Shown here piece by piece: positions 9,359 to 54,317 of a stretch of DNA of 64,000 nt (position 1 is the first letter of the stretch; the number at the start of each line of letters is the position of its first letter). This stretch comes from a virus (taxonomy: Duplodnaviria; Caudoviricetes). The position numbers and the translations under genes were made by a program. The stretch lies in the IMG/VR virus record IMGVR_UViG_3300037067_027684, positions 128,001-192,000 of that record. The stretch is one strand, 5' to 3'. The notes beneath the pieces are model-generated. The model saw nothing but the letters and a program-made list of their open reading frames with translations. It was not told the origin of the DNA and did not search any database.

Positions 9359-11089
9359 ATGGAGCAACTTGGAGAGAGAAAGCTGGCTTTCGAGGAGCGG
9401 GAACCTGTTCTCGCCGTGGGCGAGAAGAGGGTTAACAAGAATTGGTTTGGCTTGTCGAATGCTGGTTGGGTAGCAATGAATAAGGCCCGCAGTATGGGGC
9501 ATTTGGTTCGTGAGGCTGTTGCTAATGCTTTTGATGCTAAACCTGCTACTGTCAAATTGTTTTTGGAACCTGGATATATCTGTGTTGAGGATGATTCGGT
9601 TGGATTTTCATCTCCTGAACTTATTTATACGGTTTTTCTGACCGATAAGGAGGATTCCCATCTTCAACGTGGCCGTAAGGGTCGAGGTTTGAAGGAGTTG
9701 TTGGCTGCTGGTAATCAGGCTAACGTGGAAACTGTTGGTTGTACTGTGACCTTTAGCAAAGAAGGCCGTATTGAGGTTGGGAATACTAGGAAGAATGGTA
9801 CCAAGATCGAAGTTTGGGGCGACTGGAAGAATTATGATGTCGAAATAGCTGTTGAGTATCTTCGTACTTTCATTCCTCCGTGCACGCTCATAATCAACGA
9901 CAAGGAGGTTAATCTTCCGGAGTTGGTTGAGACGTTTAAAGCGGAACTTCCTACTGTGGTTTTCTCTAACGGCGCTCAGACTACCAGAACTATTGAGACT
10001 GAAGTTAAACTATATAAGTCTGAATCTATTGATTTTTCCCATCTTTACGAGATGGGTATTCCTATTCAAGTACTCGGAGACAGGTTTAATGTAGATATTC
10101 AACAGCGGGTCCCCGTTAGTGATGATAGGAATACTGCTGATTCCTCGTTCGTGTCGAAGTTGGATGCGGTTATGTTGAAGAATTTTGTGGATCGATGGAC
10201 GCGTGTTGAGTTGATGTCATCTAGGTGGATTTCGAACGGTCTATATTGGGTTGATTCCGATGTTAAGAAGAAATTTGCTGATAAGTTTGTTGATAAAAGA
10301 CCGACTGCTCTTAAATCAACCAATACCAAGGCTAATACTAGACTGAAAGAGCGTGGCTATGAATTGATTGAGACTAATAGCTTGCAATATTCTGTGAAAT
10401 CAGCTTTGGAAGGAAATATTCTAGACGCAGAAGTAATTGCTAAACGTTTGGATTCTGAAGCTCCTGATGGAGTGGTGGTACTTACCGAGCAACATCGTGC
10501 TTTTCAGTCTGTTATTTCTTGGTTGATTAAAGATGCTTTTGATCTTCAATGTGCTGGTGATCATTATATTAGACTTAATCAAGTCACTTTCTTCGCTAAG
10601 GGTGAGGGTATTGATGGGACTCATCAGAGTTGTAAGGTGATTAAAAATCCTGATGATACCAATATTTCTGTCGCAGAGAATAATGGGTCTCTTCCTATGA
10701 ATATTGCTTTTAATGTCTCTCATCCTTCTTTCAACATCGAGAAGCCTTTGAGTTCTGGGGTTATGACTTCTCTGGTTGAGGCTCTTCTCAATTATTGGTG
10801 GGACCCGAATCTGGATCATTGTCCAGATACTCCTTTCTCGGAAGTTGCGAAAATTGCTGGTGCTTTGGCTAGTGCAGTTAGTAGATTGCCTAGGGATATT
10901 CGTGAAGTTACTAAGGTTCATCCTGGTAAGACGACTTTTATTACTTGTGTTGATTGTGGTGTTAAGCGTGAGATTAAGGTTCAGGATGTTCACCAATGTT
11001 CGCGCTGTCTGGAGTGCCAGAGGAAAGCTGCTAGGTTAAGGGCCAAGATGAGGAGGATCAATCGTGAAGCTTTTGGATCAGTTACCTGA
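9359..11089 (+). CDS. GHKL (HATPase_c) ATPase with C-terminal zinc ribbon and N-terminal QLGERKLAF tag
   Basis: Bergerat motifs LVREAVANAFDA, VEDDSVGF, GRKGRGLK, GTKIEV; C-terminal CVDC...CSRCLEC. Confidence 0.85.
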   Translation: MEQLGERKLAFEEREPVLAVGEKRVNKNWFGLSNAGWVAMNKARSMGHLVREAVANAFDAKPATVKLFLEPGYICVEDDSVGFSSPELIYTVFLTDKEDSHLQRGRKGRGLKELLAAGNQANVETVGCTVTFSKEGRIEVGNTRKNGTKIEVWGDWKNYDVEIAVEYLRTFIPPCTLIINDKEVNLPELVETFKAELPTVVFSNGAQTTRTIETEVKLYKSESIDFSHLYEMGIPIQVLGDRFNVDIQQRVPVSDDRNTADSSFVSKLDAVMLKNFVDRWTRVELMSSRWISNGLYWVDSDVKKKFADKFVDKRPTALKSTNTKANTRLKERGYELIETNSLQYSVKSALEGNILDAEVIAKRLDSEAPDGVVVLTEQHRAFQSVISWLIKDAFDLQCAGDHYIRLNQVTFFAKGEGIDGTHQSCKVIKNPDDTNISVAENNGSLPMNIAFNVSHPSFNIEKPLSSGVMTSLVEALLNYWWDPNLDHCPDTPFSEVAKIAGALASAVSRLPRDIREVTKVHPGKTTFITCVDCGVKREIKVQDVHQCSRCLECQRKAARLRAKMRRINREAFGSVT

Positions 11090-11590
11090 TATTACGCCGT
11101 CTAAATATTCAGAGATGTTGAGAGCTAGGAATGAGGTTGTACAACGAAATGCTTCTCGTCGTAAGCGTGGACTGTCAGTGTTGCCGCTTCCTGATAAGCC
11201 TGAGAAGCCTTTGTGTTACGTTGCTTACTCGGATGACGGTACTTATGAGGGGCGGCTTAAGTCCCGTTCGTTGGCTGAGGCTCGTGAGGAAGCACCTGGG
11301 TTTAAGATCGTGGTTGAAGAATGGGTCAATGAAACTTACTAAGGAGAATCATCATGATCACGTATGAAGATAAGACTAAGGTTGATGACATTGAAGCCGC
11401 TAAGGAAGTTATCAAGAAGAATCTGAAGTTTGAGGCTAAGTTTACTGAGAATCGTGTGATTCGATATCTCTTCCAGCAAGATGGGGTATTGTATTTCCGC
11501 GTTAATTTTCACAATACTTCTCGGTCTAATTATATTGATCGGTCGTATTGGCTCGGCGTTTCTGGTGATAAGATTGTCGGAGTGAATTAA
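11064..11590 (+). other. two hypothetical genes (11064-11342, 11354-11590)
   Basis: Co-oriented ORFs with SD sites. Confidence 0.6.
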
Positions 11591-11668
11591 TGAAAGACAT
11601 AAGATTCTATGTTGACTTGATTTAATGGACTTTTTGATTCTTGGTATGTTGATGTCTTAGGAGACTTT

Positions 11669-12625
11669 ATGATAGGCAAAATTGACCTTGACTCAAGAAT
11701 TGACGAAATATCAAGATTAATAGAAGAAAAAAGAACAACTAGAGAGATATCGCTAGTACTAAATATTAGTAGATCAACTCTAATTAATTTCTTGAAGCTT
11801 CATCCAGAATTTAAAATTAAATTGCGAGTGAATTATGATTCCAGACGGTCAGAGGTTGCACGGAAAAATTGGTCTGATCCTAATCATAGAAGGAAGTGGG
11901 AGGAAGCACGCCGGGCACGCCGGTCTCCTGAAAGAATAGCTAGAAAGAATAAAGAAACAGCTAAAGAAAAGTGGGATAAAAGATTACCGGAAATTGAACG
12001 TCTAATTACAAACGGTCTTACTCTCCCTCAAATTGCTAAGGAATTAAATGTTGATTATGGTAACATAGTCGATAGAATCAAAAGATATCCGAATTATTCC
12101 TCTCTTAAGGAGGGGTTATATCGTAATTGGTTGGGGAAAGTAAAATCAAATGAATACAGGACCAAGAGAAGTACTCAAACTAAGTTGTTTTATCAAAAAC
12201 ATCCGGAGGTCCTCCAAAAAATGAAGGAAAAGACTCTCATGATGTTTAGGAATGAAGCCTTTAAGAATAATTTTTTAGATGCGATGTCAAGAATGTGGGC
12301 AAATCAAGATTATCGCAATAAAATGTCAAAAGTTAGTTCGGAGAAGTTCAATCAAAAGCCAGAGTTGAGAGAAAAAGCTCGAAAACATTTCAAGGATTTA
12401 TGGGCTGATCCAGCCTTTTATGGAAAAGTTTTTTCATTAGAAAATAGAACACAAGCATCTAAGAGAATGAAACTTTTATGGCAAGATTTCGAATATCGCA
12501 AAAAAGTAATGACAAACTGTAAACCAATTGCTGATTTTTGGAATTGGCTATCTGACTTTAGTGAAGAAAAACAAACGAAAATTTTAGTGGCAATCCATAA
12601 GAAAAAATGGAAAAGGAAATTCTGA
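11669..12625 (+). CDS. basic DNA-binding protein with two HTH segments and W-x-D-P-x-Y-R-like repeats (homing-endonuclease-associated type)
   Basis: REISLVLNISRSTL and LPQIAKELNVD HTH-like segments; repeats NWSDPNHR, MWANQDYR, LWADPAFY, LWQDFEYR; A-rich composition unlike neighbours. Confidence 0.6.
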   Translation: MIGKIDLDSRIDEISRLIEEKRTTREISLVLNISRSTLINFLKLHPEFKIKLRVNYDSRRSEVARKNWSDPNHRRKWEEARRARRSPERIARKNKETAKEKWDKRLPEIERLITNGLTLPQIAKELNVDYGNIVDRIKRYPNYSSLKEGLYRNWLGKVKSNEYRTKRSTQTKLFYQKHPEVLQKMKEKTLMMFRNEAFKNNFLDAMSRMWANQDYRNKMSKVSSEKFNQKPELREKARKHFKDLWADPAFYGKVFSLENRTQASKRMKLLWQDFEYRKKVMTNCKPIADFWNWLSDFSEEKQTKILVAIHKKKWKRKF

Positions 12626-13455
12626 TGAATCGGCTATTTATGATTTTACTCGTGTTAATTTGTACCCAAGTGCGATCCGAGGAAGCAAAGACTCGCATCC
12701 AAAACCTGTTGGCCGTTCATCAGACAGTCACTGACAAATATCAAGTTCTGCGCCAAAAAGTTATCCAAGGCATCGAATTGCTGAACCAAGCTAGAGAAAC
12801 AGAAAATAGATGCAAAGCTCATATCGAATCGCTTAACAATCAACGTAGCAATATCGTTCGATCTGAATCGCAAGAAGCACAAGCGTACTCATATTACATG
12901 AATACTTCGTATTGGTATTATCGACCTTACTGGTATGACTACACATCTGTTTATCGTTCCTATTCTTATAGTTATAGGCTTGACAATCTAGATAATGATA
13001 TCAATAGGGTTAGGCGTCTTCAAGAGAAGCAATCTGCAATTATTAATGAATTTTATGGTTCGAAACTTGAGACCTATATTATTCCGCCTCCAGAAAAAGG
13101 AATTAGTCAGGGGAAGAGCGCAGGTGATTATGTTTATTTGTTGAATAATTTAAAGAGTGATCATTATGTTGGCTTGGGTGGTATTCTTCTTGATTTGCAT
13201 ACTTGTCTGGCTAGTCTAGCTCTGGATTATCCAGATTATGCAGCTGAGATTAGTTTGGCGTTGGAGAAGTCACGTCCTCTATTGACTGGTGAGAGGGTGA
13301 AATCCAATAAGGTTTTGGTTCTTAAGGACGGTAGAGAAATACCAATCTCTATGATTATCGAGTCGAATGGTATTCTGACTGTTAGGACGCAGGATGGGAA
13401 GTTGTTTGAGATATCTAGGGATAAGGTTCTTGAGGTTAAGCAACTTCAAAAATAA
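12625..13455 (+). CDS. exported protein with signal peptide
   Basis: MNRLFMILLVLICTQVRS signal-like N-terminus; Tyr-rich middle; C-terminal small beta domain (VLVLKDGREI...VRTQDGK). Confidence 0.6.
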   Translation: MNRLFMILLVLICTQVRSEEAKTRIQNLLAVHQTVTDKYQVLRQKVIQGIELLNQARETENRCKAHIESLNNQRSNIVRSESQEAQAYSYYMNTSYWYYRPYWYDYTSVYRSYSYSYRLDNLDNDINRVRRLQEKQSAIINEFYGSKLETYIIPPPEKGISQGKSAGDYVYLLNNLKSDHYVGLGGILLDLHTCLASLALDYPDYAAEISLALEKSRPLLTGERVKSNKVLVLKDGREIPISMIIESNGILTVRTQDGKLFEISRDKVLEVKQLQK

Positions 13456-16112: not shown

Positions 16113-16149
16113 TTGTTGTTAAATACTTGTTCTCCGGTGAACGTGGTTA

Positions 16150-16337
16150 TTGAGCGGTGGCGGGATGGCTACCGGTACCGGCTCCGCCCGTGGTTTGGTC
16201 TCCTGTAAACGAGGACGCGTCCGGACGGGTGCTCCGGACGGGGTGCCGTCCCGTACGCGCATCGTTTACCACCGTGTAAGCGGACGGGACGGGCGGTATC
16301 CGGACGGGTGGTACGAGCGCTTGGTCGTCCTGTTCAC
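16150..16337 (-). promoter_or_regulatory. GC-rich fixed-spacing element, copy A (about 1.5 units)
   Basis: Shares blocks GTRAACA-nn-ACSACCAA, ATACCGCC, CCGCTTAC and TAAACGA with 32166-32282 and/or 48656-48771. Confidence 0.65.
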
Positions 16338-16345
16338 TTGTGCGC

Positions 16346-16391
16346 AAGGCTGGACAACTAATTTTTAATGTTTGGTGTTGTGATAGTAGAT
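16346..16391 (+). repeat. 46-bp perfect direct repeat, copy 1
   Basis: aaggctggacaactaatttttaatgtttggtgttgtgatagtagat, identical at 16680-16725. Confidence 0.95.
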
Positions 16392-16395
16392 TGAT

Positions 16396-16659
16396 ATGAT
16401 TAAATGGCAATCTATCAAAAAAGATGGCTTTCCGAAACTTAAGAAGCCGTGTGATCACGGTGGGATGACATCAGAACGCTTACTCTTATGGATTACTGAT
16501 CATATTGGATTTGGATCATATAGAGTTTATGATCATGATGTGTTGATGTCTAGTCGTATTAAGGGGAAGGCTTATGCGTTTTGGAGTATTGAAGATCACG
16601 GTGGTGAATGTGATGTGACACACTGGGCAAGGATTACGCCTCCAAAAGGTGTTCGATAA
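16396..16659 (+). CDS. DUF551-like phage protein
   Basis: MIKWQSI...P...VTHWARITPP pattern. Confidence 0.6.
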   Translation: MIKWQSIKKDGFPKLKKPCDHGGMTSERLLLWITDHIGFGSYRVYDHDVLMSSRIKGKAYAFWSIEDHGGECDVTHWARITPPKGVR

Positions 16660-16679
16660 GAATGAGTTTAGGCGTCTGT

Positions 16680-16725
16680 AAGGCTGGACAACTAATTTTT
16701 AATGTTTGGTGTTGTGATAGTAGAT
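16680..16725 (+). repeat. 46-bp perfect direct repeat, copy 2
   Basis: Identical to 16346-16391. Confidence 0.95.
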
Positions 16726-16729
16726 CTTA

Positions 16730-16864
16730 CTAATGCAGAAGGCATTCGGTGCCAACAGCATCTGGTTGCCGTGGGTGGGTGTGCAGATGTCCCGAGACGA
16801 GTGATGCATGCCACGACGTTTCGCTGATTACCACGGTTGTCGGTTAAACTCCGACCTGCATTAG
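16730..16864 (+). ncRNA. candidate structured RNA (tRNA-like arms plus pseudoknot) in a 5' leader
   Basis: 9-bp closing stem CTAATGCAG/CTGCATTAG with four internal hairpins and a 7-bp pseudoknot. Confidence 0.65.
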
Positions 16865-16883
16865 GCTTAAAAGGAGAAAAAGC

Positions 16884-17369
16884 ATGGTGAGCAAGCGCAA
16901 AGCGGTGTTGAACAAAAAGATCATGAAGGTCATCCTGAAGGGTAGGAGCAATGGTTTGAAGTGGCGGGAGATTTGTAAGCAGGTTAAGGATAAGTTTAAT
17001 ATCTATATTAGTACTTCTGCTCTTCAACAGAGGTATCAATACTTCATGAAGATGAATAATAGCTTTACTACCGCTACCGTCCTCCTATCTCCTAAATTAA
17101 AGAAAGCTGCTAAAGCAGCGGTTAAGTCTTGGTCGAAGAAGGTCAAGGATGTTACTGTGACGGTTGAGACCTATGATGGGAAGGTAAATGAGTTCCAGAG
17201 TTATCTTGATTCGTATATTGCCAAGAAGATAGCTGACGCCAAGGCTCAGATGAAGGGTAATCTTCAAGTGGCGATTGACAATTTGATGTCGATGATTGAT
17301 TCGAGTGTCAAGCACTTTACTGATAATATTAAGCAGGATCTTGGCGAAGCTCTAAATAAACTGGAATGA
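16884..17369 (+). CDS. basic protein with N-terminal HTH/Myb-like segment and coiled-coil tail
   Basis: GLKWREICKQV...STSALQQRYQ; AAGGAG SD. Confidence 0.6.
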   Translation: MVSKRKAVLNKKIMKVILKGRSNGLKWREICKQVKDKFNIYISTSALQQRYQYFMKMNNSFTTATVLLSPKLKKAAKAAVKSWSKKVKDVTVTVETYDGKVNEFQSYLDSYIAKKIADAKAQMKGNLQVAIDNLMSMIDSSVKHFTDNIKQDLGEALNKLE

Positions 17370-41638: not shown

Positions 41639-42687
41639 TGTGGTCTCCTTTCATCTCAAATTCTGCTAGTGCTAGAACTGAACAGGATGGACACAACATT
41701 TGTGGATCTTTACCATATTTTGTCCAACTCCTTGCTCCTTTGTTTCCGCAAACATATGGGCCGTTGAGGTATTCACAATTCATATTTCGATTATCCAGCC
41801 TTCTGGATTCTTCAGGAATTCCGCTTGAGATTTCCTGTCTTTGCCCATCAGAAACCAACCACTTTTGGTGCCTTTTACGAAGAAAATTACGTGTTTTGCG
41901 GCTTTGGTTCTGTTGGCTTTACTGAGTAGTTCAAAGGCTTCTTTGTAGTTTTTGCGTTTGGCGATTACAAATTCGGTGAATAGGCAAATTTTCTTCATGT
42001 TATTCTCCTTTCTCCAGTTTGATCCACCAGCATTCTGATCCCCATAGAGTAGTTCCATCGTCCAAAGTTATACGTATTCTCCCTTTGATTTCTTCAGCGA
42101 ATCCTTTCTTACCGACGTGGGGTTTAGATTCTGGCGGAGTTCTGGCTACCAGATATGGCTTTTTGCCGCCTTTGGGGCGTAGGGCTAATCCGTCTGGGTC
42201 GATGACTTTGCAGCGGCATGGCACCCAGTCACTACCGGCTTGTTTCTTTGGTTTCTTCATTTTATCCTCTCACAAGTTGTTGGATTATCGTTCCTATGAC
42301 AATTGCCAATACTGCTAGTGAGAGTGTCGAAATCATAATTAGGTCGATGGTTTCTATTTTAATCATTTAAGTGCTTCCTTTGCTTTTGCTGCGATTATGC
42401 TGAAGTCGTGGCCATTGGTGGAATCGAGATGGAGTTGTTGTGCTGTGACGATTGAGACATTGTATTCCTTCGCCACTGCTTCGCAGGCTTCTAGGATTTT
42501 CTTGAGAGTTTCGTATTTGGCTAATTCTTCGTCTCGATAGGGTCCGAGTTCAATGCTGCGAGGCCAGTCGGAGATGTCATAGGTTCCTAATTCGATGTGG
42601 ATGTCTCCTTCTTGGTCGAAGTAGACATTCATTACGTAGCTGCTGCTTTTGTCGGCTCCTGTGATCTTTTTGAGTTTGAGGAAGATT

Positions 42688-43083
42688 TTATGAATTTCTG
42701 TCCAGGTCATATGCTTGCCCTCGTGTTGTCATCCACTTTCGGTAGACATCTTCTACACAATCCGTTGGCTTCACTTTGACTAACGTTTCGTTGAACTTCA
42801 TCCAAACATCTTCTTCTACTGCTCTTTTGACGAATTGGATAACCTCGTCGGTAGCTTTGCCAAATTCTTCTCCAAAGTTTGGGGTCACAACCCACTCCAT
42901 ATTATCGTTTAGATCGAGAGATGCAAACATTGGTTTGAAGGTGTTCAGATAATCTACGTCAACTCGTGGGAATAGTAGTCTCTTGATTCCATCTGGGGTG
43001 AGTTTGGTTTTAGGTATTGGTGCTGTGACATTGGTTTGTGTTAATGTTTCTCCAATGTCTAGTGTTCTGTCTCCTAGTTCCAT
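42688..43083 (-). CDS. hypothetical protein with N-terminal ELGDRTLDI tag
   Basis: Starts MELGDRTLDIGE; paralog of the adjacent gene (EDVWMKFN vs EDTWLKFN). Confidence 0.8.
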   Translation of the reverse strand: MELGDRTLDIGETLTQTNVTAPIPKTKLTPDGIKRLLFPRVDVDYLNTFKPMFASLDLNDNMEWVVTPNFGEEFGKATDEVIQFVKRAVEEDVWMKFNETLVKVKPTDCVEDVYRKWMTTRGQAYDLDRNS

Positions 43084-43092
43084 GTTATTCTC

Positions 43093-43419
43093 CTAGATTG
43101 TGTCGTTGGTTGAAATCCAGTCATTATAATAAGCGTAAGTATCAAGTAATGGGTCATCATTAAGGTCAATTCGAAGCATACATCTGTTGAACTTTAACCA
43201 TGTGTCTTCACCTGATTCTCGTGCATAGATTCTGCTATTCCGGACTGCTTCTAGAATTGGTGTGCCACCTAATGGTTCAAGGATGTGCTTGCCGTTATCG
43301 AATATGATTTGGTATAATCCTAACCTAGTCAGCGTTTCTCTACTCGCGTAGAATTTACGCTTTATGGGTTGGGGTTGTGGTGGTACCCCAAGGTCCAATG
43401 TTCTATCGCCTAGTTCCAT
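43093..43419 (-). CDS. hypothetical protein with N-terminal ELGDRTLDL tag
   Basis: Starts MELGDRTLDLGVPPQPQP. Confidence 0.8.
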   Translation of the reverse strand: MELGDRTLDLGVPPQPQPIKRKFYASRETLTRLGLYQIIFDNGKHILEPLGGTPILEAVRNSRIYARESGEDTWLKFNRCMLRIDLNDDPLLDTYAYYNDWISTNDTI

Positions 43420-44072
43420 TTAAGTCCTGCTCTTTAGCCAGTGTGGGAAGAAAAGATTTTTCATTAGGAGATCTTTTAACTCCTTGTCATTTACCTTTCT
43501 TTTAAGAGCTTCTTTAATCTCAAGACTGATTTGGTTACTGAATAACATAGAATAGCCTTTTTCATCTGTGATTAGATAGCCGACACAATCTCCGATTGAG
43601 ACATCTGTTAACCGGAACTTCTTGCTATTAAGTTTAAGATTGCGTGTCATGTTTTGCCTTTTGTGCCTTCCCAAATGCGGCCCATTCCTTACATTTGGTG
43701 AGGGCTTCTTCGCGGGTCAAGCCTGTAATATAGTACTGTTGTTTCCACTCCTTCCAGTAAACTTCCCTAGAATGAAGCTTAACTCGCCACTCTGATTTGC
43801 GGTTTACATTCCGCCAAAATTCTCCATACCAATTTGACTTATCAGCAGCCGCCCAGATAGAACCAGTGAAGTTAAGATTATTAATGTGGTCATCTCCGTT
43901 CACATCTCCACGGAGGCAGACTCCTTTGTAGACTTCGTTGACCATATTTGCGTAACTTATTTGTTCATTGAGATTTTCTAGTTGGCCTGTGAGTTTCTCG
44001 AACTTCTTTTCGAGATTTTGATGCTTCTGTTTAAGCGTTTTCTTTTGTTTAAACAGTCGTAGGAGTGTGGCG

Positions 44073-46349: not shown

Positions 46350-48253
46350 TCTTATCTCCTGGGATGTCTTTCGCAGTTATGAATCCAAGTTCTGTGGCCA
46401 GCTCAATGGCATATTCAAAACCATCGGTATCGCAACAGCGAAGAGCATCGATTAAAGAGTCAATATCAAGAGCCAACTCAAGTTCTTTTGAAGATAGCCT
46501 TTTCTTAGAGGCGATGTACCAAGTGTCACCACCAAAGTCAATATAATCATTCATAAAACAACGAACTTTGGTCTTGGGCGGTGTGTCGATGTCAATGCCC
46601 ATAATTTCCATCTTCTTAATGGCTACGTTGGCCTTTTTGAGGAGTAATTTCTTGAATTCTTTCCATTTCTTGTTCATTCTTATCTCCTAGAAAGATGGAT
46701 TATGGATAATCCAGGTTCGGCCTGTTCCATCGGCAGAAACGCAAAGGGTATCCCATCGGGAGACTTCTCGGGGATGTTCTTTGCAGTATTGGCACTGACA
46801 GCCACTACCCATTGTGGCACTTATTGTTTCTGCGAGCGAGGGTGGGATTCGGATGTAGATGGATTTACCGTCTTTGGATTTACTAACTGGTTGGTGGCTT
46901 AAGTCTCTGATTGGGGGTCTCTTTTTCATGTTCTACTCCTTATTTCCATTGAGGAAATGTTGGTAATCTCTAGTTTTCTCGATCTCACCTTCCCCAACGC
47001 CGATCTTCTTCCTGTTTGCGAACTGTTTTGAGTATTTCGACTTGGGGTGATTCGATTTTGAATGTTCGGACTGCCGGTAGCCATGCGAAACTTGTGATTG
47101 TCTCCTCGTGTTCCAGCACGATCCTCTGTAGTGCATCGTACCAGCAGGAGTCGTGGGATGTAACAAATTCCCAATTCTCCCAATTGAACTTGTGTTCAAT
47201 AAAACCGTCTGAGGGTCCAATCTTCTTGTAGATTGAGATGTAGTTGCTTGGGGCGTAGATGAGGATGCCGAGCCAGGGGAGTGGCTTGATGTTGTCGTAG
47301 ACTTCGTTCCATTCTTCTCGTCGGAATCCGATGAACCCTACTTGTTCTCGTCTGATTTTGTCGAATGGTCCTTTGGTGTATTTCTCTTCGATTTGTTGAC
47401 GTAGGCTCCAGAGGAGCATGTGGTACATTTCTGTGTGTTTTCGAACGAGTAGTTCTGGCTTTGATCCTATTGTAAGCATTTGGGTGCTCCTTTTATTGCG
47501 TGGGTTTGATTCGTCTTCTAGGAGATTTCTTTCTTTCCGCCATGTCCGTATTTCCTTGCATTGCGAGCAATCTGCACGCATGTTACAGCATGCTCATAGG
47601 TGCGTGGTACTTGATAGCCATGCCAAGCTGAGATTGCGTGATGGTCACGAATAGCTTTCTTGGCAATTTCTTTTGCATTCTTTGCGTACTTGGTATGTTC
47701 CATGATCTTAATTCCTCTCGTTATTTCTGGAAGATCCCGAATTTGTTCCCACAGGGTCTGACTTCAAGGTGTTCTGATTCGGCGTTGAAGTCTTTAGCGC
47801 ATTGTAGAATTCGGCAACGAAGTTCTTGGTCGGGTGTTTCGCCTGCTGCTCCAGCCATTGTGACGTAGTTGGCGTGGATTTCAATAAGCAGGGATATTGC
47901 TCCGACGTATTTGGTTTTCAGGGGGAAGTCCATTTTGTTATCCTTTCATGGGTTGACCGGCTTTGGTTAGCCGGTTGTGTTCGTCTTTGAGAGCGTCTTT
48001 AAGCTTATCGGCCCATTCTCGGTCTGTGAGTTTTGAGCCTGCTTGTTTGAATGTGTTGATGAGGTGTGCTAGGTCATGCAGGTATGCTTGTTTGAGCATT
48101 TGACTCTCCTTCTGTTTCTGAATTCTTGTATGATCATTCGCATTTCTCTACGGGCTGCTGAATGGATTCCACCAAGGCGGTAGAATCGGAAGGCTATGTC
48201 CAATTCCACGGGGCTGAATCCTGAGTAGAAGGTTATTCGCATTTTGGATCTCC

Positions 48254-48622
48254 TTAATCTTCGGAAGGCCAGTAATTATTTTCAACCATAAGGTTGAATA
48301 TTTCGTTTTCGGCATCGGGGTTGTTTGCGACTTGCGCCATGACTTTAATTTCTTTATGAAGATTACTAAATTCTTTGGTTGCCAGATATTCAGTTGCTGT
48401 TGGGGGCACACCAGCTTCGTTTGTGTAAGGCGCACCATCTTTGATTTCGTCTTTTTCGGAGGGGGCAAAGACTACGAAATCCACGTCAACGAATCGTACG
48501 CCGAGTGGTCCTTTCGCTCTTTCACGAACCCAGGTGAATGCTTCTTTGAGCTTTTCCTTCATTTGTTTTGGACTGATGAATCCTTCTGTACTAAAAACAA
48601 TGGCCACTGCATTCTTAGACAT
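48254..48622 (-). CDS. hypothetical protein
   Basis: AAGGAG SD before MSKNAVAIV; downstream of GC-rich element copy C. Confidence 0.65.
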   Translation of the reverse strand: MSKNAVAIVFSTEGFISPKQMKEKLKEAFTWVRERAKGPLGVRFVDVDFVVFAPSEKDEIKDGAPYTNEAGVPPTATEYLATKEFSNLHKEIKVMAQVANNPDAENEIFNLMVENNYWPSED

Positions 48623-48655
48623 TTTGGATCTCCTTTTCTCGCTGCGCGGGCAGCG

Positions 48656-48771
48656 GACGGGCGGCACGCGCCGGATTTTGCCGGTAATTGAGCGTCGTTT
48701 ACGATCCCGTAAGCGGCGTGGCGGGGCGGTATGCGGGTACCACCAGCCGGTAGTTTGGTGGTCCTGTTTAC
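48656..48771 (-). promoter_or_regulatory. GC-rich fixed-spacing element, copy C
   Basis: Blocks GTAAACA, ACCACCAAAC, GGTAC, ATACCGCC, AAACGACGCTCAA, ACCGGCAAAATCC and CCGCCCGTC shared with copy B. Confidence 0.7.
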
Positions 48772-49529
48772 GGAGTTCCGATGGTCGAACATTTCTTGAA
48801 TGTTGTTGAAAGCACGAAGTTAGCCGTGGCAATCGGGCCAAATCCGAAACCAAGGCCATTGATTGCGTGTGAGAAAATAATTTGATGATATCTCTCTCGA
48901 TATCTGGCGCAGAGTCCTGCAAAGCGCCGGTTTGCCTCTAGAAAAATCAGAGTTCTTGTATGATCATTCGCATTTTGCGGGCTGATGTGTGGATTTCCGA
49001 TGTATCCAAATTCCCAACGTGGGGAAATTTTCATATTGTCTGGGAACCAGAAATTACTGTTGGTGAACAGTCTATGTCCTTTTCTTAGTTGGTTCACTAG
49101 TTGGGCGTTGGTGTAGGTTTCGGATGGTTTGGTGTATTTCTTTTGGGTCATTGCGAATTGGAGCAATTCTCGGGCGATTTCCATGTCTGATTTTTCAATA
49201 TTGTTGAATAATTCTTGGAGGATTCTGAGAGCTGTGGGTTTGTCTTGGACAGTATATGCCCAGCAAGTACAATGTGGTAGATATGTCTTATAGGCGTGTT
49301 TCGAATTTAGCTTGTCTTCTTGGATTAAGCGTTTGAATTTTCTCATTTATTTTCTCCTTGGTTTGTTGAGAAATCAGCTTGTTATTCCGTACCGGCACAA
49401 TGGCATCTGGTCACTTTTATGGGGAGCGAATGAACACTCCTCAAGGGAGCGTGTGGTGAGTATGTGATGTTGAGGAGATTTGACATGGACGTAAAGACAG
49501 CAAATGCTGCGTACCTAAAGGAGAGGAAA

Positions 49530-52967: not shown

Positions 52968-54317
52968 TTTTACCTCCTAGTCACTGAGGGTCCGATCTAG
53001 GAAATTTATGACATGCTCTTTGACGAATTCAAATGGTAGTTCAGTTTCTTTGATAATTATCTTAGTCATGGTCTCTGATCCCATCAATTCTTCTCCATTC
53101 TTCAGCGCTCGATCATAGTCCTTTGCGGTCCAATCTTTAGTTAGGCCATGGAGTTTTTCGCAGAGTTGTTCTATTTGGTAGACTAGGAAGTCACTGTGGT
53201 CTATTCGGTTGCAGTGCGCGCATTGTTTGTAGACGATTTTGGTTTTGAGGGTTTTGGAATATTTGATTCTGTAGGTGTAGTAATGGAAGAGGACATTTCT
53301 GCTTTGTGTGTTTTGTTCTCGTAATTCTGACATTAGGACCTCCAAGCGCGTCGTCGGAGGCCATCCCGACGCAAAGCAGATGCCACAACCCACTCAGCTT
53401 GCGCTATGGTATCACTGCACCGCGCTTATCTAATTCTTCCACGGTTTCTGTTTAGTCGTGCTCTTGCAGCTTCAGCGTCAGAATTCATATTCAGGTGTGT
53501 TTTCGCAGAATCAGCATGTCTTACTTCGGCTGATACCAAATAAGCTTCATCTTCTTCATAGCGAAATTGAAAGTTCACAGTAGAGTCCATTGGCATATTA
53601 GCTGCTTGTTTGAGATATATTTCGATATCAGAAACATTGAATGTTACGACGGTTGTTTTTTCGATTTTCCTGTCCATGCTGTCTCCTTACCATTCCCACC
53701 AGTGCACGCAGGACCATAGCAGATGATTCTGAATGGCGGCGGGTCAGGGAATTGTACGGTCACGTTCCCAACAACCAACGTCAGCATCAGTTGGGATTCT
53801 TTTTTCTTTCGTTTTCGCTTCATTTCTTCTCCTGTTCTTGATTTCGATAACACGTATCTACATTGTGCTCAATCCCTTCTATGTCTCGAAAGAATGACAC
53901 TTCACCTATAAACTTAGCAACTAACTTCCCACATATGTTGACTCGTAACCATCCAGTCTCAACTTCTATGTCGTGAAGTGGCCATTCGTCACCACTATAG
54001 AAATGTGCCACCAACGGCTGTGGCAGGCTGTCAATATGCTCCATTCTCAATTTGTCCATCACCTTCTTCTCCTTGAAGGCCCAAAGCTTATCACGTGGAG
54101 TTTGGGGATCAGGCGATTGAAGAGGTTGACAAAGTATTGCATCAGCTCCATGATCACGCTTCATAATTTCTTCGATCTTGCGTTCTGGGTCTGCTGGTAC
54201 TCCCGCACCATCTTCTATCAAAATAGTCAGGTCTTCTTCAAGAGTCAAATTACCCTTCCTATACATGCAGTGTACTTTGAATGGGATCATTTCAACTAGA
54301 GTAAGATTCTTCATTGT

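Follow-up and report, generated by a model that had tools for sequence, protein, structure and literature searches.

A candidate structured leader RNA with a highly conserved 56-nt core upstream of a putatively HTH-like gene in a rare giant-phage lineage

A 56-nt core, present in two lineages at the same position upstream of a gene for a 161-aa protein, was found to be identical at 55 of its 56 positions; it is put forward here as a candidate RNA motif that rests on this conservation and to which a putative function is assigned. In the window, the whole 64,000-nt stretch of DNA that was analysed (bases 128001-192000 of a 246,684-bp phage record in IMG/VR), the core is interrupted by a 79-nt expansion and forms an element of 135 nt. 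The explanation that we tentatively prefer, at slightly less than an even chance, is that of a selected, cis-encoded structured 5' leader RNA in which the 56-nt junction is the functional unit and would protect the 5' end of the transcript.

The element is located in a 224-nt gap between an 87-aa ORF (16396-16659) and a 161-aa ORF (16884-17369), both on the plus strand and within a long plus-strand gene block. A sequence-only reading of this DNA had described a tRNA-like, pseudoknotted RNA of 135 nt, and all of the helices that it listed, together with an AA linker and a loop pairing, were found in 16730-16864. The features of the locus were the following.

16346-16391, plus strand: first copy of a promoter-like 46-bp box, with its end 4 nt upstream of the SD-less ATG of the 87-aa ORF
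16396-16659, plus strand: 87-aa ORF with an SD-less ATG
16680-16725, plus strand: promoter-like box, copy 2, an exact duplicate of copy 1, ending 4 nt before the closing stem
16730-16738, plus strand: 5' strand of the closing stem P1, CTAATGCAG / CUAAUGCAG, with nine Watson-Crick pairs to 16856-16864; identical in the related locus L006
16741-16753, plus strand: D-like hairpin, GGCA-TTCGG-TGCC = GGCAU-UCG-GUGCC, 4 bp and a U-G pair; identical in L006
16758-16764 with 16784-16790, plus strand: middle hairpin GCATCTG/CAGATGT, read from the sequence
16763-16841, plus strand: 79-nt expansion, absent from L006, holding all or part of each of three middle helices
16768-16774 with 16831-16837, plus strand: loop pairing GCCGTGG/CCACGGT ("pseudoknot"), read from the sequence
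16793-16799 with 16817-16823, plus strand: middle hairpin CGAGACG/CGTTTCG, read from the sequence
16839-16855, plus strand: T-like hairpin, GUCGG-UUAAACU-CCGAC, 5 bp and a 7-nt loop, abutting the closing stem
16856-16864, plus strand: 3' strand of P1, CTGCATTAG / CUGCAUUAG, pairing with 16730-16738
16871-16876, plus strand: SD AAGGAG, unpaired with the element and with local pairing of its own in the minimum free energy (MFE) fold
16884-17369, plus strand: 161-aa gene, whose product is modelled with a three-helix domain at the N-terminus and a long helix at the C-terminus

The AAGGAG begins 6 nt past the closing stem, as the sequence-only reading had stated, and the ATG of the 161-aa gene follows at 16884; the distances from the end of P1 were 6-8 nt to the SD and 20-23 nt to the ATG. 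Contigs from four DNA runs were identical to the window across the element; they departed from it only by the loss of 1 nt at 16869, in a single contig of low depth, and by three substitutions within the 87-aa ORF. The 161-aa protein received no Pfam or PHROG family assignment. Its AlphaFold2 model (pLDDT 72) gave HTH proteins as the best fold matches in the PDB, with E>=0.9, and an atlas fold search likewise returned weak matches of the HTH type. The DNA-binding gene that had been proposed downstream of the element kept these weak fold matches on its side and gained no family; the protein may be HTH or winged-helix-like, a DNA-binding role being weakly supported by the model. A small-terminase/pac-site reading of this protein was dropped, with no significant match and no adjacent gene for a large terminase.

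The strongest evidence came from the comparison with an orthologous locus. Among billions of proteins, the 161-aa protein was found in two close clusters only. The members of the first one were 99% identical (loci L003-L005), and their element was identical as well. The second consisted of P0002, a protein with 61-68% identity encoded on a 1,440-nt Logan contig (L006), where an element of 56 nt occupied the same position and read CUAAUGCAG, AA, GGCAUUCGGUGCC, GACAGCA, UCGGUUAAACUCCGA, C and CUGCAUUAG, that is, a 9-bp closing stem, AA, the D-like hairpin, a 7-nt linker and the T-like hairpin. With the insert removed, the window and L006 shared 55/56 positions of the core. By comparison, the adjacent CDS was 79% identical (78% at the third codon positions over its first 50 codons), and the values for the promoter-like box and for a GC-rich block upstream were 69% and 94%; the binomial P for the conservation of the core was 3.7e-5. 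This conservation formed a mosaic at the scale of tens of nucleotides and, therefore, one recent recombination tract does not explain the identity of the core. Strong purifying selection on the core is supported by these comparisons. The only substitution, A/G at 16754, was unpaired in every model, and the paired positions were invariant across the two lineages found; hence, covariation was nil and speaks neither for nor against any helix.

Conservation, rather than the stem alone, is also what would lift the element above chance. According to our estimate, about 50 inverted repeats of 9 bp within 200 nt are expected by chance in 64 kb, so the closing stem is not significant on its own, and the 7-bp loop pairing would be within chance once G-U pairs are allowed.

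The 79-nt expansion included the 3' partner of the loop pairing and spared P1 and the D-like and T-like hairpins. Since L006 lacks these 79 nt, the middle hairpins and the pseudoknot are lineage-specific and dispensable, and of the 135-nt pseudoknotted unit proposed from the sequence it was the 56-nt core that stood. The site of the expansion corresponds to the place of the anticodon arm in a tRNA. Short similar repeats were present at its ends (TCTGGTTG at 16761-68 and CGGTTG-TCGGTT at 16834-45), and no copy of the insert above chance was detected elsewhere in the phage genome. The two arms of P1 were 38 nt apart in L006 and 117 nt apart in the window, a variable spacing that is easier to reconcile with RNA pairing than with a dimeric DNA site. 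As for antisense targets of the element in the genome, only chance-level 12-mers were obtained (E of 1.5 or more).

The comparison also supports a non-coding, plus-strand element. An AUG inside P1 opens a short uORF in both lineages (16733-16804 in the window and 341-376 in L006; MQKAFGA(N/D)SI...), which runs for 23 codons in the window and for 11 in L006, with different C-termini and a stop that in L006 is the UAA of the T-like loop. This uORF has no SD and its AUG is buried in P1, and it is probably not translated. A further ORF, of 41 aa from 16702, has lost its ATG in L006.

Additional searches indicated that the element, as known from these two lineages, is confined to one rare phage lineage in the collections covered. 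An exhaustive HMMER search with the 161-aa protein returned P0002 (locus L006) only, plus four distant relatives; a model built on the 56-nt core (R1) found no element in the DNA of three of these four, P0005 being left out, and a search for shorter protein fragments gave nothing. A distant blastn search of the INPHARED phages produced nothing that matched the element. In IMG/VR, neither scans seeded with the 161-aa and 485-aa proteins nor exact or gapped DNA patterns gave any hit; two 15-mer seeds hit 41 and 37 loci, which model R1 rejected as chance matches, none of them having both hairpins. Two patterns run on the JGI metagenomes found nothing, and two on the GTDB genomes found none and then 9 chance matches in GC-rich coding DNA. 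Within the phage genome and all of the loci fetched, R1 recognised only the element itself.

Other sequences around the locus were recorded. A GC-rich non-coding block at 16134-16270, with TCCGGACGGG repeats and the potential for a long hairpin, is the block with 94% identity in L006; a similar GC-rich block occurs at a second divergent gene junction (L021 7540-7680), where no similar box or leader was found downstream. In a 99%-identical relative (L003 1-1697, NCBI GCA_043956695.1 contig), two genes for TnpB (IS605 OrfB) lie about 0.8-2.5 kb upstream of the 87-aa ORF, and no ORF of TnpB size was found at the matching place in the window.

The 46-bp box that precedes the element occurred in two copies only in the 247-kb genome. 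Copy 2 contains the sub-boxes AACTAATTTTTA (16690-16701) and TGtGATAGTAGA (16713-16724, extended -10-like). L006 has a single copy, in which AACTAATTTTTA and GATAGTAGA are conserved and the rest of the box is 69% identical; it has no 87-aa ORF, the whole cassette being absent. From its sequence, we infer that the box is a promoter whose extended -10-like element is TGtGATAGT, and its duplication before an SD-less ATG fits this. Transcription would start at about 16729-16730, as judged from the spacing (8-9 nt past GATAGT), on the first base of P1. Since the box ends 4 nt before the stem, the fold is probably at the extreme 5' end of the mRNA. A simple sigma-70 scan called no promoter at the box, and no terminator was found at the element. 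On the upstream side, the 87-aa ORF would be leaderless and, bracketed as it is by the 46-bp direct repeat, looks like a gene cassette that was inserted together with a duplicated promoter or through recombination at it.

The folding calculations were in agreement with a robust P1 in both variants. When the inferred transcript starting at 16729 was folded, P1 had a pair probability of 0.99 and the SD was unpaired with the element, as it was in L006 too. The 56-nt form of L006 had a z-score of -3.7, and 0/200 shuffles folded as well. Thermodynamic support for the 135-nt form was modest: an MFE of -50.1 kcal/mol, z = -2.3, with 6/200 shuffles folding equally well, and a diffuse ensemble in which the MFE structure accounted for 4%. 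The T-like hairpin was kept in that MFE fold, and in L006 it is predicted with 4 bp and an A-C mismatch. Forcing the 135-nt form to keep P1 and the D-like and T-like hairpins gave -49.2 kcal/mol, compared with the MFE of -50.1. Furthermore, the plus strand of the element folded better than the minus strand. The 56-nt core had two isoenergetic folds of -19.5 kcal/mol, one with the two tRNA-like hairpins and the other with a central hairpin, UCGGUGC/GCAUCGG; an alternative hairpin of this kind, UCGGUGC/GCAUC(U)GG, competes at equal energy with the D-like hairpin, and in the 135-nt form the two differ by no more than 1 kcal/mol. Because of this second fold, the two-hairpin interior of the core is not established.

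The likeness to tRNA that the sequence-only reading had seen was maintained in the connectivity of the core, which has connectors of 2 nt and 0-1 nt, a 7-nt loop with U1 and A5 and a T-like stem stacked on P1, and was not matched by any tRNA model. The RF00005 (tRNA) model did not match the element of either lineage at the gathering threshold or at E<=10. As had been noted, neither an anticodon arm nor a CCA is present, the closing stem being followed directly by GGCU or GGUU, and ARAGORN found no tRNA at the element; with 56-135 nt the element is likewise too short for a tmRNA, and ARAGORN found none in the window or in the genome. In intron mode, this program detected only two other genes of the tRNA type in the genome. 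One is the sole canonical tRNA of the phage, with the anticodon CUA (amber suppressor; genome 301-374, L015), with which the 5' strand of the element has in common the 11-mer AATGCAGAAGG in the same register (shuffle p = 0.002-0.005). The other is a tRNA body with canonical D/T arms and an insert of about 92 nt at the anticodon loop (genome 223996-224169, minus strand, about 12396-12569 of L023). A crude ORF-length test for TAG recoding gave no clear signal.

The novelty claimed with respect to Rfam also held. At gathering thresholds, nothing was found over the whole window; with E<=10, only noise-level matches appeared around the site (freshwater-2, 15.5 bits, and DUF2815, 15.3 bits), driven mainly by the SD. 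As a positive control, other parts of the genome were searched with the same library, which detected one tRNA and three Twister-P5 ribozymes. The three Type-P5 twisters, above the Rfam gathering threshold, are on the minus strand in one gene block (L023 3278-3351, 8104-8170 and 10903-10972; genome 214878-222572).

The preferred explanation, that of a 5' leader RNA, brings these results together as follows. The 56-nt core would form a three-way junction in which the 9-bp P1 encloses two hairpins, linked in the manner of the acceptor, D and T arms of a tRNA. Directly past the promoter-like box, P1 would be the 5' terminus of the mRNA from an operon led by the HTH-like gene. The 79-nt expansion in the anticodon-arm slot would be optional, as the relative has none. 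A stable 5'-terminal junction of this kind would leave almost no single-stranded 5' end and, we propose, would shield the transcript from 5'-end-dependent decay (of the RNase E/RppH or RNase J type). With 20-23 nt between the end of P1 and the ATG, the A-rich SD region would stay open. The near-invariant loops and linkers suggest, in addition, that a specific factor may read the tRNA-like top half. Protection of the 5' end with an open RBS appears to be the most economical mechanism, one with precedents among the simple 5' hairpins of bacteria and phages. Nevertheless, several points count against the leader reading: a generic stabiliser hairpin would not need invariant loops; read-through from the upstream copy of the promoter, in the window, would put the element inside the transcript; and zero covariation, two lineages only, the lack of a sigma-70 call and the second isoenergetic fold weigh in the same direction.

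The main rival to this explanation, rather unlikely in our view, is a mimic of the top half of a tRNA that is excised by tRNA-end enzymes: RNase P would cut read-through transcripts 5' of P1, and either RNase Z or RNase E would cut on the 3' side. A stable small RNA of 56-135 nt would be released and a short-leadered mRNA defined, and the anticodon slot would be free for an optional cargo domain. Such an excision would make sense of the tRNA-like connectors and stacked T-like stem, of a conservation confined to the acceptor-, D- and T-like parts with the indel exactly at the anticodon position, and of the 11-mer AATGCAGAAGG in common with the phage tRNA in the same 5' register; RNA processing is, besides, a theme in a genome that has a tRNA body with an insert of about 92 nt and twisters at gene junctions, and RNase P is the enzyme that matures the P1/P7 C4 and P4 CI leader RNAs. 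It is opposed by the tRNA model and ARAGORN, which found no match, by a closing stem of 9 bp and not 7, a T-like loop without C56, a D-like loop of 3-5 nt and the lack of a CCA, and by a phage genome in which no CCA-adding enzyme, RtcB or Ro/TROVE protein was found; moreover, the coaxial stack of 13-14 bp misfits the 12-bp ruler of RNase P and RNase Z. A more specific proposal is improbable: the 56-nt core would be a minimal mimic of the tRNA top half (acceptor, elbow and T arm), excised by host tRNA-end enzymes and persisting as a small RNA, which would act either as a scaffold with an exchangeable cargo slot or as a decoy or sponge, the target then being a defence nuclease or host factor that recognises the acceptor or elbow. 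If true, it would be the second such design in a phage that already has the tRNA body with the large insert. The decoy for anticodon nucleases imagined in the sequence-only reading was rejected, since the element, and the 56-nt form most of all, offers no anticodon arm. At the same low level of probability we place a site acting as DNA, either an operator for the HTH-like protein or a recognition site for packaging or replication, in which the hairpins would be incidental inverted repeats. Near-total conservation that includes the loops (55/56) is typical of protein-binding DNA, the position between a promoter-like box and an HTH-like gene is apt, the core contains four occurrences of GCAT(T/C) or its complement, and the second conserved non-coding block with TCCGGACGGG repeats is just upstream; on the other hand, the nesting of three inverted repeats, whose loops measure 3 and 7 nt, resembles an RNA fold, P1 arms 38 and 117 nt apart are unsuited to a dimeric site, and support for DNA binding by the protein is weak (no family, E>=0.9).

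The conservation could also be incidental, a reading that we hold to be more doubtful still: a decaying tRNA relic or a neutral spacer, possibly with a leader peptide, and without RNA function. Two lineages without covariation, and a uORF that starts at the same AUG (16733) in both, leave room for it, but 55/56 identity set against 79% in the coding flank does not suit a spacer, and a uORF of 11 or 23 codons with no SD, a buried AUG and divergent C-termini does not suit a leader peptide. A novel self-cleaving ribozyme, which the first reading had entertained, is a very unlikely addition to it; the phage is rich in ribozymes, yet no ribozyme model (twister, hammerhead, pistol, hatchet, HDV-like and others) matched at E<=10 over 16500-17100 or L006 60-430, with a library that finds three twisters elsewhere in the genome. 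The lowest probability of all is given to a bistable, riboswitch-like element that would alternate between a fold A with two hairpins and a fold B with the central hairpin in response to a ligand, a protein or temperature. Two mutually exclusive folds of exactly equal energy in the 56-nt core (within 1 kcal/mol in the 135-nt form) and an invariant junction and loops are what such a switch would need. Against the riboswitch suggested by the sequence-only reading, no expression platform was found: the 9-bp P1 is stable in both folds and neither touches nor overlaps the SD, there is no terminator, and the CUCC of the T-like hairpin can make only 4 bp with GGAG. In addition, the 79-nt insertion adjoins the junction, and neither a metabolic gene context nor an Rfam riboswitch match was found.

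If the core is a working RNA, it would be an uncatalogued and very compact three-way-junction leader from a rare giant-phage lineage. The RNA biology of this lineage is unusual: several twisters lie at gene junctions, one tRNA is an amber suppressor, and a tRNA body contains a large insert. The 56-nt and 135-nt forms are a natural pair that shows which parts are essential and where foreign RNA fits, and it could show how a phage protects or processes the 5' ends of its transcripts, or how the upper half of a tRNA is imitated. Other features of the genome include a gene for Cas3 (HD and helicase) and a CRISPR array (46545-49184 and 53378-53950, L017), the latter with at least 8 full 29-nt repeats of type I-E-like form, GTCTTTCCCGCGTAAGCGGGGATAAATCG, and 32-nt spacers, followed by 2 truncated copies; by eye, the element had no similarity to this repeat. 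A dockerin-domain protein, a Mom-family protein and a C-methyltransferase interrupted by a LAGLIDADG intein are encoded at 10280-13120, 41995-43575 and 91687-94161, the first of them being a hint of a cellulolytic Clostridia host.

Several known systems resemble the element in part. Compared with a tRNA (RF00005), its closing stem has 9 bp instead of 7 and there is no anticodon arm or CCA; its UUAAACU loop keeps U54, U55, R57 and A58 of the T loop, with A in place of C56, and its D-like loop of 3-5 nt differs from the GG-containing D loop of 7-11 nt. The element would accordingly be outside the tRNA family and, at most, a mimic or a distant derivative. A tmRNA has a tag reading frame and pseudoknots, for which 56-135 nt are too short. 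The tRNA-like domain of tmRNA, the YrlA-type Y RNAs and the phage's own tRNA with an insert of about 92 nt likewise have a tRNA frame in which the anticodon position is empty or holds an unrelated insert, but those bodies keep canonical D/T arms and are found by tRNA, tmRNA or Y-RNA models, whereas the element is not; for a YrlA-type Y RNA, both the Rfam match and a Ro/TROVE gene in the phage are missing. The P1/P7 C4 (RF01695) and P4 CI RNAs share with the element their leader position in a phage operon and a tRNA-like form, and differ in that no Rfam match and no antisense target above chance were found here. The freshwater-2 motif (RF02980), a metagenomic cis-regulatory RNA, likewise has small hairpins, with a 4-bp stem and a 7-nt loop, upstream of an AAAGGAGAAA-ATG region, but its scores, 15.5 bits for the window and 18.6 for L006, are far below the gathering threshold of 49.9, and P1 falls outside that model. 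The junction strands of 2, 7 and 1 nt do not, in our own reading, fit a hammerhead core.

The closest functional parallel for the preferred leader reading is with the 5'-terminal stabiliser stem-loops, such as those of the ompA and the B. subtilis aprE and ermC leaders, the phage SP82 stabiliser and the T7 gene 10 leader. These likewise have a stable helix near the 5' end (in the element, an end placed from the position of the box), an open, strong SD after it and a cis action on the downstream gene; a strong and accessible RBS was found here as well, the AAGGAG being free of the element and 6 nt downstream. They are, however, simple hairpins with unconstrained loops, while the element is predicted to be a three-way junction with near-invariant loops and linkers. 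On the comparisons made, the element belongs to no catalogued RNA family and is a new candidate motif among the structured leader RNAs of phages.
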